This document shows, piece by piece, positions 1,642 to 30,100 of a stretch of 32,000 bases of DNA (positions are counted from its first letter, which is position 1; each line of letters starts with the position of its first letter). Under the pieces are notes generated by a model. It was not told the origin of the DNA and did no database searches. It worked only from the letters and a program-made list of their open reading frames with translations. This DNA is from Candidatus Saccharimonadota bacterium. GTDB taxonomy: Bacteria; Patescibacteriota; Gracilibacteria; BD1-5; UBA6164. The stretch is from NCBI GenBank assembly GCA_963677765.1, contig OY782392.1, positions 360,001 through 392,000 of the forward strand, written 5' to 3'. A program made the translations under genes and the position numbers.

Positions 1642-2901
1642 TTATTCTATTTCTTCTATATCAGCTCATAAAGATTTTAATTTATTTAAAAAATCTTCAT
1701 AACCTCTATATATATATTCAACATTTGTTATTTTTGTTTCTCATTCTGAAATTAATCAAGCTATAACCATAGCAGCTCAAGCTCTAAGATCCCAAGAAGT
1801 TACTGTAGCTCATCATTTTAAATGATTTGGTCAAAAAATTACTGCTTCATGAGGATTCATTATAGCTAAATTAGCAGCCATTTTTTCTAACTCAACTAAA
1901 AAGTTTAATCTTCATTCAAACAAAACTTCATGTATTTTACTTACTCAATTAGCTTGTGATAATAATATAGTAAATGGTGATTGCAAATCAGTTGGAAATC
2001 AAGGAAATATATTTGTTTGAATATTTATCGCTTTTAAATCTTTTGATTTATAGACTCTTAATGTATCATTACCTAAATCCTCTACTTTTACTCAAGTTTC
2101 TTTAAGTTTCTCAATATAAACATATAAATCCTCTATTCTAGCATCAATAATATCTATATATTCTTTTGAGGCTAATGCTCATATAACCATATAAGTTCAT
2201 GATTCAATATAATCAGCAACTATATCAAACTCAAAATCTGAACTTAACTCTTTTACTCAATTAATTATAATTTCATGATTATATCTTATTTTAATATCTG
2301 CTCAAGCTTTTCTTAAAAAACTTATAAGATTCATTACATGAGGTTCAATAGCAGATGATTTAATAACTGTTTTTCATTCTCTCAAAACATTTGCAACAAT
2401 CAGGTTCTCAGTTGAAGAAACTCAAAAACCTCAATTTAATACTTTATCCCCTGAACTAAGTTTTCAATTTAAAGAAATATCTTCATTCTCATAAATATAA
2501 TCATATCATATTGCCTTTAATCAATTTAAATGAGAATCAATTGGTCTTCTTCATATTTTACATCATCCTGGAAAAGGAATTTTTATACTACCAAAAAAAT
2601 GTAATAATGGTGATAGTAAAAATATAGATGATCTTATTTTTTTTATTTTTTCAAAATTTAAATTTTCATTAGTAATATTAGAAGAATCAAAAATAAGGCT
2701 AGTTCCCTCCCAACTATACTTTACTCAAATTCATTCTAGTATATCAAGAAAAGTCATAACATCCCCTATTTTTGGCATTCTATTCAACTTAACTTTTCAA
2801 TTTAACATCAATGCTGCTCACAATATAGGCAAAGCTGCATTTTTAGATCAGCTTATTTTAACACTACCTGATAATTCTTTTTTTCATTTAACTACTAACA
2901 T
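1642..2901 (-). CDS. murA: UDP-N-acetylglucosamine 1-carboxyvinyltransferase
   Basis: ATG 2901 and TAA 1644-1642 are in frame (419 codons). MLVVKGKKELSGSVKISGSKNAALPILGAAL..., FPGGCKIGRRPIDSHL (catalytic Cys loop) and FPGFPTDLQ are present. Roughly three quarters of Gly codons are TGA. Confidence 0.93.
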
Positions 2902-3026
2902 CTAAAAAAATTAATTAATATTTAGAAAAGAATTATATATAAAAATATTTTTATTTCAATTTTGAAATTTAAAACTTTTTTATATAATTTTTATTAGATA
3001 TTAAAATAATATTTAAATACAAAAAA

Positions 3027-4931
3027 ATGTTTGAAATAAGTGCAAAAAAAGTCGACTTAGAAAAAAATAATACAATATTAAAAAGAAATATAAACTTAGA
3101 TAAAAATTTAGATTGTTTTATATTAGTTAGTTCTAATAATTCTAAATTAGCTGAAAATATATTAAATAATACTTTAGAATTTTTAATAGATAAAATTAGC
3201 AAAAAAGATGCTTATAAAGATTTTTCTATAGCATTAGAAAGTGTTAATTCATATTTAAAAACTTGGAGAAATGAAGAATCTGAAAAAGATAATAATTCGC
3301 TGGATATGATTATATCTATATTAAATGAAAATAATTATATTTTTTCTAATATATGAGACTCTTCAGCCTATTTAATAAATAAAAATTCGGAAGTAATAGA
3401 ATTAACTGAAAAAAATGAAAATAAAAAATTATTTTCATATATTTCAAGTTGAAGCTTAATGAATTGAGATATTGTTATTAATTCTACAATTAGTTTACTA
3501 AAATTCTTAACAAAAAGTGATTTAATAGATTGATTAGTATTATCAGAAGATATAGAGATTTTTAATAAAAATATAAAAAATATACTATCTAGTGAATTGC
3601 TATGAAAAAACTGTCTAGTTAGTTCATTAAAATATGAAAATAAATCACAAAAACAAAAAAATGAAAAAATTGAACTAATTAAAGATTATTGTATAAAATG
3701 ATTAGATAATAAATTTATAAAGCAAGTTATTTGAAAGTCGTTATTATTAAAAGAAAAACTAAGTTCAAAATCTAAAAGTATTAAAAGTGCTATATTTATA
3801 TTATGAATTTCAGTGTCTATATTTTTTCTATATACTACTTTAGACAAAATAGTTTCAGTTACAACACAAACAGAAAAAAAACAAGAAGCTAAAAATGATA
3901 TTATAGAAATAAGAAACTTTGTTAGAATAGCAGCTGAAAATGTATCTAATCAAGAAGTTTTTGAAGCAAATATACTTAAAGCTGAAGAATTAATAAGCAA
4001 AACAAAAGACAAAGAATTATTTTTGAATGATTTAGAACAAATAAATCAAAATATAAATATATTAAAAAATCAATTTAATAAAATTGAAACATTCAAAACA
4101 ACTGATGATAATTTAATATATGATTCTAAAGAATTAGATTCTGTAAAATTAATAAGATACAACTCAAGAAATTATATTATAAATAAAAACTCTGTTGTTT
4201 GACCTATAATATCAGAAAAATCAGATGCTAAAATATATATGTTTAATTCATTATCTGATTGAGAAGAATTTATTGATGCTGTAGCAATAAATTGAGATTT
4301 ATACATACTTACAAACAAATCAAAAATTGTAAAATTTACAAATAATGGATTTTTTAGTTTTATAAGTGTTAATGGACAAGCATCATGGTGAAATATAAAA
4401 GATATAGAAGCTTATTCGTCAAGCCTATATACATTAACAGATAATAATCAAATAAATAAACATACTCTTTGAGTTAATGAATTTAGAGCAGGGACACCTT
4501 ATTTAAAAGATTGAGATTTAGAGCAAAATTGAAAAATAAGAGATATTTGAATAGATTGATGATTTTATATGATAAAAGAAAATCTATCAATGATAAAATT
4601 TTTCTCTTCACCATATAGAATAGAATCTCTTATACTAAATAAATTGCCTGACAATTATTCTTATGACAATGAAAGTTCAATAGCAATAAAAGCAAGAAAT
4701 GAATTAAAATATGCTTATATGCTTATGAATAATAAAATATGGATATTTAACACAAACACTAATAGTTTTGTTAATACAAAAAGTTTAACTTATGTATGAC
4801 AAATAGAATGATCAGACGAAAAAATAATAGATTTTTATGTTAATTATGACTGAGAATTATTAGTTCTGAATAAAAAATGAATATACAAATTAAACTTTGA
4901 AGTTAGCGATGATAAACTAATTTTGAAGTAA
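3027..4931 (+). CDS. Membrane-anchored protein: degenerate PP2C-like N-terminal domain, TM helix, coiled coil, C-terminal repeat (beta-propeller-like) region
   Basis: One frame is open from 3027 to TAA 4929-4931. It joins track ORFs 3027..3356, 3813..4202 and 4569..4799 through in-frame TGA. PP2C-like motifs NIGDSSAYLI and NGDIVINST are present, but the DGxGG position reads FILVSSNN. TM segment AIFILGISVSIFFLYTTL. The function call is an inference. Confidence 0.6.
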
Positions 4932-12913: not shown

Positions 12914-13702
12914 ATGGATAACATTGCAAAAGAAATAAATCTACTTTTTTCAATGTTTGAAGAAAATTTAATTCTTCAAATGGAGATTATAAGTAGTTTA
13001 ATAATAGTTAGTTTAGTTTTAGTACTAGTCTATTTTGGGCTAAAACTAAAAAAAGTAAGAAATTGCTTTGATTGCCATATATATGACAATGAGCCAACAA
13101 ACTTTAAAGAAAGATTAAACTTATACTTATCTGCTCCTCTTATGAGTGGAAACGGTATTTGTATGTGGAGAGTGTATCTCTCAATACCATTGGCAATTAT
13201 CACTGTTATAGTATATGATAACCAAATCCTTTCTTCTATTGTTCTACAAATATATGTTTTTCTTTTTGTGACAGATGCTCTAGATGGAGCTGTTGCAAGA
13301 AGTTTAAATAATGTAACAAATATAGGTAAAGTATTAGATCCATTTGCAGATAAGTTTTTGGATTTAGTAGTCTTGTCTATAGTTGTATATTTTTCTGAAA
13401 ATGTTTTTTTCATGATATCAACAGCTATAATAATAATCTTTGATATCATAGGACAAACAATAAGAGGAAAAACAAAAAATCCTGCTGCTAACTGGGTTGG
13501 AAAAACCAAAACTGTATTCAAAATAATAACAATCTATCTAATAAGCCTAAATAGATATGATTTGAATTTAGAGTACATTGGAACTATATTCATAACTATA
13601 AGCTTAATTTTTACTATTGCCTCTTTTTATCTAAAAGCAAAAGAAAAAATAAAAGCTAAGTTTGAAGCATTAAGAAGACTAGTTATAAAGGATTTAGTAT
13701 AA
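12914..13702 (+). CDS. CDP-alcohol phosphatidyltransferase family membrane protein
   Basis: Uninterrupted 262-aa ORF even in the standard code. It carries the signature DALDGAVARSLNNVTNIGKVLDPFADKFLD (DGx2ARx8Gx3Dx3D). All 9 Gly use GGN and both Trp use TGG. It has its own SD and a GC-rich terminator. Confidence 0.88.
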   Translation: MDNIAKEINLLFSMFEENLILQMEIISSLIIVSLVLVLVYFGLKLKKVRNCFDCHIYDNEPTNFKERLNLYLSAPLMSGNGICMWRVYLSIPLAIITVIVYDNQILSSIVLQIYVFLFVTDALDGAVARSLNNVTNIGKVLDPFADKFLDLVVLSIVVYFSENVFFMISTAIIIIFDIIGQTIRGKTKNPAANWVGKTKTVFKIITIYLISLNRYDLNLEYIGTIFITISLIFTIASFYLKAKEKIKAKFEALRRLVIKDLV

Positions 13703-18942: not shown

Positions 18943-19187
18943 TGAAAGAATTTATTAGAAAAATATTATTATTCATTTTATATTGAGCAATATCAATATG
19001 GCCATGAATGATTATATGATATGCTGCATACTGATACTTTTGTCAAAATATAAATTTTGAAAATTTTTGTAAAATAAAACAATCATGAGATAGGATATAT
19101 GATTTTGAATTTTGAGTACTATCAATTTTATTAATATGGTTAATAATATTAATTATTATTTTTAGAAAAACTAAAAAAGAAGACTAA
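18942..19187 (+). CDS. Small two-helix membrane protein (81 aa), unknown function
   Basis: The ATG overlaps the ung stop (TAATG). TAA 19185-19187. Hydrophobic segments ILLFILYGAISIWPGMIIGYAAY and GVLSILLIWLIILIIIF. Confidence 0.5.
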
Positions 19188-19204
19188 TATGTTAGTCTTC
19201 TTTT
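19174..19204. terminator. Bidirectional intrinsic terminator containing both convergent stop codons
   Basis: AAAAGAAGACTAA TATG TTAGTCTTCTTTT. Each arm carries GAAGACTAA, the last codons and stop of one gene. Confidence 0.7.
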
Positions 19205-25966: not shown

Positions 25967-26039
25967 TTTTTTCAATTTATTTATACTTAAGAAAACTAAC
26001 TATAGATATAATAAAACTAAAAAAAACTTATGCAAATCT

Positions 26040-26852
26040 TTTGAGTAAATATAAACAACATAAAATACAATACTCTACTAGAAAAAATAAAAAAACTTGA
26101 TGAACAAAATATAATATTTACACCTAACCCTGAAATATTATTAAAGGCAAAAAGTGATGAAAATTTCAAAAAAATTTTAAATAAAGCAAATTATTTAACT
26201 GCTGATTGAATCTGATTATATATAGCTTTTCAAATAAATGATAATAAATATGGAAAAATAATTAATACTGCTCTTATACCCTATTATTTTTTTAATTTAT
26301 TTTTCAGAAGAAACTTCTTATACAAAAAATACTCTAAAAGAATTTGCTGAAGTGACCTAACAAAAGATTTAACAATTTGGGCAGAAAAAAATAATATAAA
26401 AATAACAATTATAGATTTATACAACCCTCTTGATAAAAATAAAGTAGAATCTCAAAAAGTATTTAGAGATAAACTTCAAAATAAATTTAAAAATCTTGAT
26501 TTTGATTATTTTATATATAAAGATTCGCAAAAAGAACAAATTATAGAAAAAATAAAAAACTCAAACTCAAAAATAGTTTTTTCTACTCTATGAATGAAAA
26601 AACAAGAAGAATCTATAATAGAGATAATAGAAAGATGCGAAAATATAAAAATATGATTAGCAATTTGATCTAGCTTCGATTATATGGTTTGATTTCAAAA
26701 TAGAGCTCCAGTTCTATGGAGAAAAATATGACTAGAATGGCTTTATAGGCTAATTACTGGTCCTAAAAAAATAAATAGAATTAAAAGGTTATATAATGCA
26801 ATATTTGTATTTATTTTCGAATTAATAAAAGAAAAAAAATAATTTTTATTTG
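26040..26852 (+). CDS. WecB/TagA/CpsF-family glycosyltransferase
   Basis: Checked codon by codon from ATG 26040 to TAA 26850-26852 (270 aa). FTPNPEILL, TADGIGL, STLGMKKQE and IGSSFDYMVGFQNRAPVLWRKIGLEWLYRL are present. Confidence 0.85.
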
Positions 26853-26859
26853 ACTTATA

Positions 26860-26887
26860 TTAAAAAAAGGTTATTTATTTTTATATA
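26860..26887 (+). promoter_or_regulatory. Putative promoter of the aro leader/operon
   Basis: TTGACT (26860-26865), 16 nt spacer, TATATA (26882-26887), about 28 nt upstream of the leader ATG. Weak evidence in AT-rich DNA. Confidence 0.3.
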
Positions 26888-26914
26888 TTTATATTAAAAA
26901 ACTAAAAAACAGAC

Positions 26915-26992
26915 ATGAAAAATTTAATGTTAAATACATATTTTTTCTTTTTCTATTTTAGTCCTTGAAATAAGTTCAAAGGTGTTTTTTAG
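26915..26992 (+). CDS. Aromatic-rich leader peptide (25 aa) of the aroG-tyrA-pheA attenuator
   Basis: ATG 26915 ... TAG 26990-26992 encodes MKNLMLNTYFFFFYFSPGNKFKGVF. Seven consecutive Tyr/Phe codons lie at 26939-26959. There is an in-frame TGA at 26966-26968. Confidence 0.65.
26963..26987 (+). promoter_or_regulatory. Attenuator segments 1 and 2 (pause hairpin; segment 2 is also the antiterminator strand)
   Basis: CCTTGAA (26963-26969) pairs with TTCAAAGG (26975-26982), with one bulge. TCAAAGGTGTTT (26976-26987) can pair with AAACTCTTTTGG (27033-27044) at 11 of 12 positions, including 2 G-U pairs. Confidence 0.55.
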
Positions 26993-27032
26993 CATGAAAA
27001 TATATAAATGTAAATTTTGCAGTTATTAAGCT

Positions 27033-27070
27033 AAACTCTTTTGGACTACCAAAAGAGTTTTTTTATTTTT
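27033..27070 (+). terminator. Attenuator terminator (segments 3:4) 21 nt upstream of aroG
   Basis: AAACTCTTTTGG ACTA CCAAAAGAGTTT followed by TTTTATTTTT. It sits inside a 5' leader, not at a gene end. Confidence 0.8.
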
Positions 27071-27090
27071 ATTAATTAACATAAAATATT

Positions 27091-28185
27091 ATGAATGACA
27101 AAGCATTATTAAGTGACAAAACCTCATTAGTAGATGATAAAAGAATTATTGATATTGAAGAAATAACTACTCCTGAAAGTCTAATAAAAAAATACCCTTT
27201 AGATAAAGATACTGAAAGATTTATTGATACTAGTAGACAAATAATAAGCGATATTATAAATTTAAAAGACGATAGATTAGCTGTTATAACTTGACCTTGT
27301 TCAATAAACGATCCAAAACTAGCAATGGAAATAGCACAAAAAATAGTAGAACTAAAAGAAAGGTATCCTAATGTATACCCTATAATGAGAGTATATTTTG
27401 AAAAACCTAGAACAACAGTTTGATGGAAATGATTAATTAATGACCCTGATCTAGATGATTCTTGTAATATAGATAAATGATTGGAAGTTGCTAGAGAGTT
27501 ATTATTAAAAATAAATAAATTAGGAGTAGCTACTGCTGTAGAATTTTTGGATGTTATAAATCCTCAATATTTTGCAGATTTAGTCCATTGGGGGGCTATT
27601 TGAGCAAGAACTACTGAAAGTCAAGAACATAGAAAAATGGCTTCATGATTAAGTATGCCTGTTGGTTTTAAAAATGGTACAAATTGAGATATACAAATAG
27701 CAATCGATGCAATTAAATCAGCAAAAGGAAGTCATAGATTTTTATCAAATACTAAAGAATGAAAAGTAGCTAGAATAACAACTCAATGAAACCCTGATTG
27801 ACATATAATACTTAGATGATGAAATAATTGAACTAACTATGATAGAGTAAGTGTTGCAAATACAATAGAAAGATTAGAAAATGCATGAATAGATAATTGA
27901 GTTATTATTGATTTTTCACATGCTAATAGTAAAAAAGATCATAAAAACCAACCTATAGTATCTGATAAGGTAGCATCTCAAATAGCAGAATGAAATAAAA
28001 AAATAGTTTGAATTATGATAGAAGCAAATATAAAAGAAGGTGCTCAATCTCATACTCCAGGAAAAGATGATCCGAGAAAAATAGAATATTGAGTCAGTAT
28101 AACAGATAAATGTGTTGATTGGAAAACTAATGAAGAAATGATTGAAAAATTAGATAATGCAGTTAGAATAAGAAAAGAAAAATAA
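27091..28185 (+). CDS. aroG: 3-deoxy-7-phosphoheptulonate (DAHP) synthase, class I (AroF/G/H type)
   Basis: ATG 27091, TAA 28183-28185 (364 aa). ITGPCSI, EKPRTTVGWKGLINDP (TGA TGG AAA TGA at 27421-27432), GARTTESQEHR, VGFKNGT and IDFSHANS are present. Confidence 0.92.
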
Positions 28186-28203: not shown

Positions 28204-29247
28204 ATGAAAAACATTGCAATAATATGATGAAGTGATTGATTTTGAAAATGGCTAGCAAATTATCTTAACAAAAATTTTTTAGATAATATTTCTATAACTA
28301 TAACATGAAGAAATATAGAAAAATTAAAAAAAACAGCACTTGAAATATGATGTAATTACTCTGATAATAATAAAGATACAATAAAAAATGCAGATATTAT
28401 AATATTCGCTGTTCCTATATGAATAATGGAAGATACTATTAAAAAATATATAATTTATGCAAAAGAAAATTCAATTATACTAGATGTAACATCTATAAAA
28501 GATGGTCCTAGTAAATCAATGTTTGAAAATGCTCCAAAAAACTCTTTGGTAATTCCAACTCATCCTATGTTTTGACCATATGTATCAACAATAGCATGAC
28601 AAATATTTGTTTTAACTCCTAAGCAAAAAGATAAAAAAGATTCTAGATATTTATTTTTGAAAAATTATTTAGAAAAAAATGATGCAAAAGTTATTGAGAC
28701 AACTGCTATAGAACATGATAAAATGATGGCAGTAGTTCAGTGATTAACTCATTTTGATATGTTTGTATTATGAGAAACTATTAAAAGATTAAATCTAGAT
28801 ATTAATAAATCAATGAATTTTGTATCACCAATATACAAAATAATGATTTCTTCTGTTGCTAGATATTTAAATCAAAATCCAAAACTATATTCAGATATAC
28901 AAATTCATAATAAAGAAATTTTAGAAGTACATAATGTATTTATGTCAGTAACAAATGATTTTAATAATTTTGTAAAAGAAAAAGATGAAACTAATTTTAT
29001 AAATACTATAAAATCAACAGCAAATTATTTTTGAGAAAATACTAAAGAGTGACAAGAATATACTGATAAAATAATATATCTTATATGAAAACAAATTGAA
29101 AAAGCTCACGAAAAAGTTTGAGAAACAATTAAAATAGAAAATATATATAATAATGAAGTAATAACTTGAAAGTTAGATGAATTTAGAGATAACTTAATGG
29201 TAATTAATAATAATAAATATAATTTAAATACTTGGGAAATAAAATAA
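28204..29247 (+). CDS. tyrA: Prephenate dehydrogenase
   Basis: ATG 28204, TAA 29245-29247 (347 aa). IAIIGGSDGFGKW (Rossmann), DVTSIK, PTHPMFGP and HDKMMAVVQGLTHF are present, plus a C-terminal extension of about 65 aa. Confidence 0.88.
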
Positions 29248-29254
29248 AAAATTT

Positions 29255-30067
29255 ATGAAAATATACTATCAATGAAACCCCTGAAGCTATATGAATATAG
29301 CTTCTAAAGAAATAACAAAAAAATTAGATATAGAAATAGATGATTACATATGAAAACCTGAGTTTTTAGATGTATGGGAATCAATATCTGATGATTGAAT
29401 ATGAGTACTAGCAATAGAAAATTCATATATGTGAAGTATACATCCAAATATATATAACTTTTTAAAATATGATTTTAAAATAATATGAGAATATTATTTA
29501 GAAATAAAACACTGTATTTGTTCATTAGAAAACGATATAAGTAAAATAAAAGAGGTATATTCTCAAATGCCTGCATTAGAACAGTGTCATATGTATTTAA
29601 AAGAAAAAAATATCAAAGCTAGAGAATTCAGTGATACTGCTCTTTCTGCAAAGTATATATCTGAAAAATGACTAAAGTGAGTATGAGCTATATGCTCTGA
29701 AGAAGCTGCTAAAATATATTGATTAAATATTATTGAAAAAAATATTGCTGATCAAAAATGAAATACTACAAGATTTATTATAGTTGCAAATAAAAATACT
29801 AAATTAGAATATAAAAATATATCAAATAAAACAAGTATTATATTTGAAGCAAAAGATATACCATCTAGCCTATACAAATGTTTATGAGCATTTGCAACAA
29901 ATAATATAAATCTAAAAAAAATTGAAAGTATGCCAAGCTATCAATGAAGCTTTAGTTATTATTTTTGGTTAGAATTTGAATGAAAGCTAAATAATGAGAA
30001 AACAAAAAAAGCTATAGAAGAATTAGATTTTTTTACAAAAAAAATAAGAATATTATGAGAATATTAA
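29255..30067 (+). CDS. pheA: Prephenate dehydratase (PDT + ACT domains, no chorismate mutase domain)
   Basis: ATG 29255, TAA 30065-30067 (270 aa). YYQGNPGSY, LAIENSYMGSI, NTTRFIIV, and the ACT region TSIIFEAKDIPSSLYKCLGAFA...IESMP are present. Confidence 0.9.
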
Positions 30068-30100
30068 AAAAGAGATGTTATAATAACATCTCCTTTTTTT
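30068..30100. terminator. Bidirectional intrinsic terminator after pheA
   Basis: AAAAAAGAGATGTTA TAA TAACATCTCCTTTTTTT. Confidence 0.7.

Follow-up and report, generated by a model that had tools for sequence, protein, structure and literature searches.

The region upstream of the aromatic amino acid operon aroG-tyrA-pheA in a 32,000-nucleotide stretch of contig OY782392.1 (assembly GCA_963677765.1; hereafter the window, the whole stretch of DNA that was analysed, with its first letter as position 1) very probably forms a ribosome-mediated leader-peptide transcription attenuator, which would tie the operon to the supply of charged tRNA-Phe and tRNA-Tyr. A short leader open reading frame (ORF) with seven consecutive Phe and Tyr codons is followed there by an intrinsic terminator, and its 3' part can pair with the 5' arm of that terminator to form an alternative, antiterminating hairpin. 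The same arrangement was found in 12 of 12 lineages: an ORF of 24-28 codons with a run of 5-7 Phe/Tyr(/Trp) codons, an antiterminator and a terminator stand 5' of aroG or of the ORF leading up to aroG. These comparative data from relatives are the decisive support for the attenuator. Its parts in the window are the following.

26850-26877, + strand: promoter-like site, with a -35 box TTGACT (26850-26855), a 16-nt spacer and a -10-like TATTTA (26872-26877); consensus match only
26915-26992, + strand: leader ORF of 25 codons, with ATG at 26915 and TAG at 26990-26992, encoding the peptide MKNLMLNTYFFFFYFSPGNKFKGVF under code 25
26939-26959, + strand: regulatory codons TAT TTT TTC TTT TTC TAT TTT (seven Tyr/Phe codons), a run in the frame of the ORF
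26963-26969, + strand: segment 1, CCTTGAA, which holds an in-frame UGA (Gly) and pairs with 26975-26982
26975-26988, + strand: segment 2, TTCAAAGGTGTTTT, which ends 2 nt before the leader stop and co-varies with arm 3
26975-27045, + strand: antiterminator, a long imperfect hairpin based on the 2:3 helix, with a minimum free energy (MFE) of -11.9 kcal/mol and z -1.0
27033-27070, + strand: intrinsic terminator, with arm 3 at 27033-27044, loop ACTA, arm 4 at 27049-27060 and a T tract at 27061-27070

Leader, pairings and terminator in the window

The leader peptide reads MKNLMLNTYFFFFYFSP-G(UGA)-NKFKGVF and is followed by TAG. A preliminary description of this DNA had proposed a mini-ORF with seven aromatic codons ahead of a Tyr/Phe operon; we recovered this short ORF with its tandem end-product codons, Pfam confirms aroG, tyrA and pheA behind it, and every other element that had been listed is likewise in its place. 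The leader is the sole ATG-started ORF of at most 40 codons in the window that carries an aromatic run of at least five codons. Runs of at least seven Phe/Tyr codons, counted over six frames, occur four times in the window and are mostly antisense to Lys/Glu/Ile-rich coding sequence. Elsewhere, comparable aromatic mini-ORFs number four in 184 kb of related loci when both strands are considered (about 1 per 46 kb).

The intrinsic terminator, which separates the leader ORF from the first structural gene, is a perfect 12-bp hairpin (27033-27060) followed by TTTTATTTTT up to 27070. It is far more stable than shuffled sequences (z -5.3, 0/200 shuffles), in agreement with the strong 3:4 terminator and U-tract noticed earlier. 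The distance from the end of the terminator to the ATG of aroG (27091) is 21 nt, which leaves no room for a separate promoter. This is the only terminator-like site of the window that stands just 5' of a gene; the others start at most about 20 nt past a stop codon.

The two alternative pairings share segment 2. Segment 1 (CCTTGAA) pairs with TTCAAAGG (26975-26982) through 7 bp and one bulge (-3.2 kcal/mol), and positions 26976-26987 pair with arm 3 (27033-27044) at 11 of 12 positions, two of them G-U (-7.7 kcal/mol). In the entire upstream region, the best partner of arm 3 is segment 2. The antiterminator had originally been drawn as a 12-nt duplex; its 11 of 12 paired positions hold, and its true form is the long hairpin 26975-27045, not merely that duplex. 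A U run, GUGUUUUUU, comes right after the 1:2 hairpin (26963-26992; likewise in all relatives), making a weak terminator- or pause-like structure inside the leader ORF, and this U run is, in the antiterminator, also a partner of the A-rich 5' end of arm 3. The weak 1:2 hairpin and the U run may together serve as a pause site.

Recurrence of the leader and the switch in related lineages

We retrieved aroG neighbourhoods for homologues with 59-90% AroG identity; four of the retrieved loci come from Gracilibacteria metagenome-assembled genomes (MAGs) at NCBI. The 12 lineages are the window and 11 others with a UGA-interrupted aroG, whose AroG is 59-81% identical to that of the window. One locus at 90% identity (L001) was left out, its contig being too short and carrying the terminator only. 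An AroG scan of genome contigs returned one Gracilibacteria locus, which was already in the set, and the scan of metagenome contigs returned none; the remaining matches of the AroG scan belong to other phyla (48-55% identity) and were used as an outgroup only. The leader peptides of the 12 lineages are listed below (g = UGA).

Window: MKNLMLNTYFFFFYFSPgNKFKGVF
L002: MKNIISNTYFFFFYFGPgNEFKGVF
L005: MKIFTNTYFFFFYFSPgKSSKVFFAV
L006: MKTIVVNTYFFFFYFSPgYKFKGFLA
L088: MKSLRNTFFYFYFNLSILKDVFgg
L089: MRNLRQNYFFFFFgNIFFFKGCFFSI
L090: MRNLKQNYFFFFgNKFFFKGgFFSI
L091: MKNLMQNTYFFFYFWTQFSSRNIFCV
L094: MNTQKLHLSWNFFFYFFFLKNGRVSLCI
L176: MNHISLHSTWAYFYFFFSKNGRVSLCV
L177: MNHITLHTSWTFFYFFFTKNGRVSLCV
L095: MNKLITTTSYFFFYFFSKAEGYFWCM

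The aromatic run lies in the frame of the ATG in 12 of 12 lineages, and the other two frames reach at most two aromatic codons. In class A, the clade of the window, the run varies only between TAT and TAC and between TTT and TTC, all synonymous changes, and the N-terminal codons change freely. L005 carries a one-codon indel before the run with the frame kept. The leader is conserved as a reading frame across all 12 lineages. A mini-ORF that 12 lineages have kept, and whose richness in aromatic residues recalls some small membrane peptides, could also be an independent gene for a conserved hydrophobic micropeptide with its own terminator, aroG then being expressed by read-through or from another promoter. 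We consider this very unlikely: conservation is limited to the Phe/Tyr run, the residues at both the N- and the C-terminus differ, as does the length, and L005 changes frame after the UGA. In addition, aroG always accompanies the mini-ORF, as does an alternative RNA fold into which the 3' end of the mini-ORF extends, and across lineages the gap between the terminator hairpin and the next gene is only about 15-35 nt.

The genes upstream of the leader vary. They encode WecG on the same strand, PNP, a glyoxalase-like protein or an HflX-like GTPase on the opposite strand, or an AI-2E transporter. This difference between lineages indicates that the attenuator unit travels with aroG. Downstream, one or two other ORFs lie between the terminator and aroG in L094, L176, L177 and L095.

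Terminators of -10 to -16 kcal/mol are found in 12 of 12 lineages, starting 15-39 nt past the leader stop, and they fall into six classes of unrelated sequence (A-F). In every lineage the best upstream partner of the terminator 5' arm is the homologous, AAGG-containing segment 2, with its start 4-17 nt past the run and its end 2-16 nt short of the stop. We performed a pairing-swap test on one representative per terminator class (six). The native combinations of segment 2 with arm 3 sum to -71.5 kcal/mol, compared with -57.8 kcal/mol for the best of 265 derangements, and 4 of 720 permutations equal the native pairing.

A MAFFT alignment of the full leaders placed the terminator arms in two registers and misaligned L095, and pairs were therefore counted with the sequences anchored on the AAGG of segment 2. 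Counted in this way, 113 of the 133 cells of the 2:3 helix are paired, a fraction inflated by taking the helix pairs of every sequence from its own MFE fold, which does not inflate the coordinated base changes. Five positions of the helix change on both sides (for example C-G, U-A and G-C at one of them), two alternate between G-C and G-U, and two are invariant. In the MFE structure of 12 of 12 lineages, segment 2, arm 3 and the sequence between them form a single long hairpin (-9 to -22 kcal/mol), with z ranging from -1.0 in the window to -5.8 and reaching -2.7 or lower in seven lineages. This antiterminator ties up 9-14 of the 9-15 nucleotides of arm 3. The antiterminator that excludes the terminator is supported by covariation, although the signal in the window is weak (z -1.0). 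The conservation of the mini-ORF and of the alternative pairings in relatives, on which the preliminary description had staked its proposal beforehand, extends to 12 of 12 lineages. Class by class, the 1:2 hairpin reaches significance in B, C, E and F (p = 0.000-0.013), is marginal in D (p = 0.083) and is not significant in A; in class E the Phe/Tyr run itself is segment 1.

The effect of ribosome position was simulated by folding the nascent transcript to the end of arm 3 with the ribosome footprint masked. A ribosome at the fourth codon of the run leaves arm 3 paired with segment 2 in 11 of 12 lineages. When the ribosome is at the stop codon instead, no pair between arm 3 and segment 2 is left in any of the 12: arm 3 is fully unpaired in six, and in the other six it engages in weak local pairs only (at most 10 nt, at most 1.4 kcal/mol). 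The simulated folds thus have the geometry of an attenuator (11/12 stalled, 12/12 at the stop) and agree with the earlier suggestion that segment 2 is freed when the ribosome stalls and covered when it reaches the stop.

Several observations weigh against this interpretation. The 12 lineages share ancestry and are hence not 12 independent trials, and the inflated pair count given above belongs to the same side of the balance. In class C (L089 and L090) a distance of 16 nt separates the core of segment 2 from the stop that follows, so that a terminating ribosome would cover this core only in part, and L089 yields no antiterminator in the masked fold. Translation of the leader is predicted only. 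The genome is 78% A+T, and Phe/Tyr codon runs and U tracts are common because of this composition. Within the window, the 1:2 hairpin is not distinguishable from chance (p = 0.4 versus shuffles), the 2:3 duplex has p = 0.03-0.06 versus shuffles and 0.12 versus other stretches of the window, and the antiterminator has a z of only -1.0. The comparison of fold energies with shuffled controls, which had been suggested from the outset, therefore gives a divided answer: the terminator stands out (z -5.3), the region 26930-27032 folds no more stably than shuffles (z +0.65), and the pairings are marginal (2:3) or at chance level (1:2). The pairing of segment 1 with segment 2 is present where it had been claimed and is weak. 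For the window alone, base composition could yield much of the picture, and only the terminator beats chance.

These weak window-only statistics, together with the frequency of Phe/Tyr runs in the genome, are what could be expected if the hairpin served to end transcription of the upstream wecG-like gene, or were a terminator with constitutive leakage, and the Phe/Tyr run were an accident of AT-rich intergenic DNA; moreover, the wecG-like gene has no other terminator. The comparative data already contradict such a coincidence, which we hold to be extremely improbable. The unit is kept where the upstream gene differs or sits on the opposite strand, the terminator begins 190 nt past the preceding stop codon rather than within the distance of about 20 nt seen at the other terminator-like sites of the window, and the background of aromatic mini-ORFs is low. 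The attenuator remains our preferred reading of the region.

The gene content behind the attenuator differs among the relatives. In L095 (1893-3583) the order is a 90-aa ORF, chorismate mutase (CM_2) and aroG, and in L094, L176 and L177 one or two ORFs without a Pfam match come before aroG. In L089 (aroG 2501-3571) and L090 (aroG 2501-3565) aroG stands alone behind the attenuator, and L088 (706-2720) has aroG and pheA and no tyrA. The public aroG call of L006 (2168-3331, protein P0004, 387 aa) starts 23 codons early and runs into the terminator region. The leader ORFs are uncalled as genes in every public record examined.

Proposed mechanism and the operon under its control

We propose that the TTGACT-type promoter would start transcription some 30 nt 5' of the leader ATG and that a ribosome would translate the 25-codon leader as RNA polymerase advances. 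With Phe and Tyr plentiful, the ribosome would pass the Phe/Tyr codons and the UGA (Gly) to the TAG at 26990 and cover segment 2 (26975-26988). Arm 3 would then pair with arm 4, and transcription would terminate at the T tract (27061-27070). With Phe-tRNA or Tyr-tRNA scarce, the ribosome would stall on 26939-26959, covering segment 1 and leaving segment 2 free. Ahead of the synthesis of arm 4, the free segment 2, the spacer and arm 3 would fold into the 26975-27045 hairpin, and the polymerase would enter aroG. Translation of the leader, coupling of transcription and translation, and Phe and Tyr as the signal are the parts of this scheme that we infer.

The start signals of the leader recur in the relatives. 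Of the 12 lineages, 11 have a TTGACW-N16-TAnnnn motif 49-65 nt 5' of the leader ATG, and a related TTGCAT-N16-TATAAA was spotted by eye in L088. The leader ORF has no Shine-Dalgarno sequence and an A-rich start context, as do 30 of the 31 genes of the window. Only the gene at 12914 has a recognisable Shine-Dalgarno sequence (AAGGAGG) and the others start after A/T-rich sequence, which suggests that initiation in this genome is largely Shine-Dalgarno-independent.

The same switch could in principle be set by something other than the ribosome, such as an RNA-binding protein of the PyrR or TRAP kind, a T-box-like contact with tRNA or a riboswitch, with the Phe/Tyr ORF not acting as the sensor. 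A pyrimidine-rich run is conceivable as a protein-binding site, and there is a weak match to the PyrR site (RF00515; 30.9 bits, E 0.008-0.02) with the same three-hairpin layout. This score lies far below the gathering score of 54, and the 14 model positions of the first hairpin, taken as the recognition loop, are reduced to 3 nt. We rejected the PyrR match because this recognition loop is missing; many of its pairs are non-canonical as well, and the genes downstream are not pyr genes. T-box and riboswitch matches are absent from 26700-27200 even at E up to 10. What is conserved in the run is the reading frame and the identity of the amino acids, with varying codons and no conserved RNA motif, and the stop codon is always just 3' of segment 2. 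A sensor of this kind seems to us most unlikely, and a translating ribosome remains the favoured one. More generally, no Rfam 15 family reached its gathering threshold, either in the window or in 20 related loci, the leader region having been scanned to E up to 10. Membership in the Phe_leader family (RF01859) was also rejected: the score is 16.4 bits (E 1.8-4.6) versus a gathering threshold of 55, and only the terminator part aligns.

The genes around the leader and the end of the operon are as follows.

26030-26842, + strand (same strand as the leader): WecG/TagA-family glycosyltransferase (wecG-like), by Pfam
27091-28185, + strand: aroG, class I 3-deoxy-D-arabino-heptulosonate 7-phosphate (DAHP) synthase, Pfam PF00793, E 8e-85
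28204-29247, + strand: tyrA, prephenate dehydrogenase, Pfam PDH_N and PDH_C
29255-30067, + strand: pheA, prephenate dehydratase with an ACT domain, Pfam PDT; ACT at 23.5 bits, below the 27-bit cut-off
30072-30100, + strand: operon-end terminator, a 9-bp stem GAGATGTTA/TAACATCTC followed by CTTTTTTT

The window terminator scan gave no terminator for the wecG-like gene, and the -35 box of the leader lies 8 nt past the stop codon of that gene; read-through from wecG into the leader is therefore possible. Elsewhere in the window, convergent genes are separated by a palindromic hairpin of 13 bp (19175-19204) that has T tracts on both strands and is likely a bidirectional terminator.

The window has a GC content of 21.7%. 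Its long ORFs total 14,074 aa under code 25 and 2,942 aa under table 11, which breaks the ORFs up. UGA is decoded as Gly: of the 364 codons of aroG 18 are UGA, and all of them stand at Gly columns of homologues, or at W where databases used code 4. UGA sense codons are used very heavily in neighbouring genes too, with 16 in tyrA, 16 in pheA and 9 in the wecG-like gene. The nearest named AroG proteins come from 'Candidatus Gracilibacteria bacterium' MAGs, one of which has an identical gene order.

The leader contains one such codon, at 26966-26968, inside the UUGAA of segment 1 that is complementary to the UUCAA of segment 2. The preliminary description had singled out this in-frame UGA as notable, and that view did not survive the comparison. 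It is a common Gly codon that is missing from 5 of 12 leaders and sits inside the UUGAA/UUCAA stem, and the frame of L005 shifts directly past it; we therefore rejected the UGA as a regulatory or code-dependent signal. One UGA per 25 leader codons is about what is expected, because UGA is among the commonest Gly codons in the genome. Judging by footprint sizes, a ribosome halted at UGA 26966 would reach about 26980 and mask the start of segment 2, and the outcome of the switch would probably be equal under either code. The leader offers an internal check on code 25, as its reading must pass the UGA to reach the stop just past segment 2.

Known attenuators and implications

In the textbook model, trpL-trpEDCBA of Escherichia coli, 2:3 pairing follows from a stalled ribosome, and one that has reached the stop masks segment 2 and leads to 3:4 termination. 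The logic proposed for the window is alike; the amino acid sensed is another one and the sequence is unrelated. E. coli has a further Phe leader attenuator in pheM-pheST. The pheL-pheA attenuator of the same species, whose mechanism is described in PMC3082878, likewise has a short ORF with a Phe run, RNA capable of 1:2, 2:3 and 3:4 pairing and, directly ahead of a gene for Phe biosynthesis, an intrinsic terminator. A Pro codon and then UGA come soon after the run both in pheL and in the window leader. However, this UGA is a stop in pheL and encodes Gly in the window, where the ribosome consequently continues across segment 2. The window also differs from pheL in that its run mixes Phe and Tyr, its operon starts with DAHP synthase and includes tyrA, and its host has a Gracilibacteria-type genome of 22% GC; there is no similarity in sequence or by covariance model.

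Another parallel is aroR-aroF of Corynebacterium glutamicum. According to the account in PMC11802643, which refers to Neshat et al. 2014, a leader with Phe-Tyr-Phe precedes a DAHP synthase gene there, and ribosome stalling under Phe limitation raises read-through. By this description the two systems are functionally analogous, with a leader of Phe and Tyr codons and an operon led by a DAHP synthase gene. The aroR system differs in belonging to Actinobacteria with high GC and the standard code, and its motif is only Phe-Tyr-Phe, in contrast to the 5-7 consecutive codons found here.

Aromatic leaders were also detected in the outgroup. Of 159 outgroup aroG loci, 12 (on metagenome contigs with 46-70% GC and the standard code) have Phe/Tyr/Trp leaders and GC-rich terminators before aroG. 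These Burkholderiaceae-type leaders, on contigs L107, L110, L113, L115, L122, L129, L137, L145, L147, L149, L163 and L168, lie at about 2265-2395 with aroG at about 2501, i.e. some 110-235 nt before aroG; examples are MQTRIAFYFYFWFSVPGGREASA and MQNAFARFYFYFAFPMPLAEEGSRVA. For L113, the AroG matches are proteins of Burkholderiaceae, Ramlibacter and Variovorax. No aromatic leader was found at 79 aroG loci of GTDB representatives (Verrucomicrobia, Gammaproteobacteria, Myxococcota and others). As in the Gracilibacteria, a terminator follows the Burkholderiaceae-type leaders, and the 3' part of the leader resembles the 3' arm of the terminator. Unlike the Gracilibacteria leaders, they come with 46-70% GC and the standard code and include Trp codons; sequence similarity between the two groups of leaders is not detectable, and AroG is only about 50-54% identical. 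No Rfam 15 family matched the Burkholderiaceae-type leaders. Their existence shows that aromatic leader control of aroG would not be confined to Gracilibacteria. The resemblance between 'FSP-G(UGA)' of the window and 'FSVPGG' of the Burkholderiaceae-type leaders was considered as a sign of homology and rejected: the one lies in segment 1 and the other in segment 2, and the likeness is hence probably coincidental.

A doubtful, though conceivable, history is that aroG and its Phe/Tyr(/Trp) leader moved together between a Burkholderiales-like lineage and Gracilibacteria, and that the switch survived the drop in GC to about 22% and the reassignment of UGA from stop to Gly. The attenuator would in that case be a long-standing partner of this aroG lineage and not something that arose locally. 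Survival across the change of code would be possible because the logic of the switch works under either code, a stop at UGA 26966 still masking part of segment 2. If this co-transfer were true, a cis-regulatory RNA switch would have been carried across a genetic-code change, and the family would be the first documented ribosome-sensing attenuator family in the candidate phyla radiation (CPR).

Gracilibacteria and other CPR bacteria are uncultured, and the usual description credits them with minimal biosynthesis. To our knowledge, almost nothing is known of gene regulation in Gracilibacteria or in other CPR/Patescibacteria. We searched the literature on Gracilibacteria or CPR together with leader peptides, attenuators or the shikimate pathway, with incomplete full-text coverage, and found no relevant report; the earlier impression that no leader-peptide attenuation had been described in CPR is upheld within this coverage. 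A 2010 survey stated that leader peptides were known only from Proteobacteria and Actinobacteria, and added Firmicutes (PMC2965389). With aroR-aroF and the Burkholderiaceae-type leaders at hand, the novelty lies in the lineage and the genetic code and not in the mechanism. Since the mechanism is a textbook one, the gain is in taxonomic reach and annotation, with no new principle.

The conserved Phe/Tyr attenuator suggests that these cells run and regulate part of their aromatic amino acid synthesis. Transcription and translation are likely coupled tightly enough for the position of a ribosome to decide termination, and intrinsic terminators and sigma-70-type promoters appear to be in use in Gracilibacteria. 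Leader-peptide attenuators would thereby gain another lineage, and annotation would be supplied with an RNA and small-ORF family that is lacking in Rfam 15.

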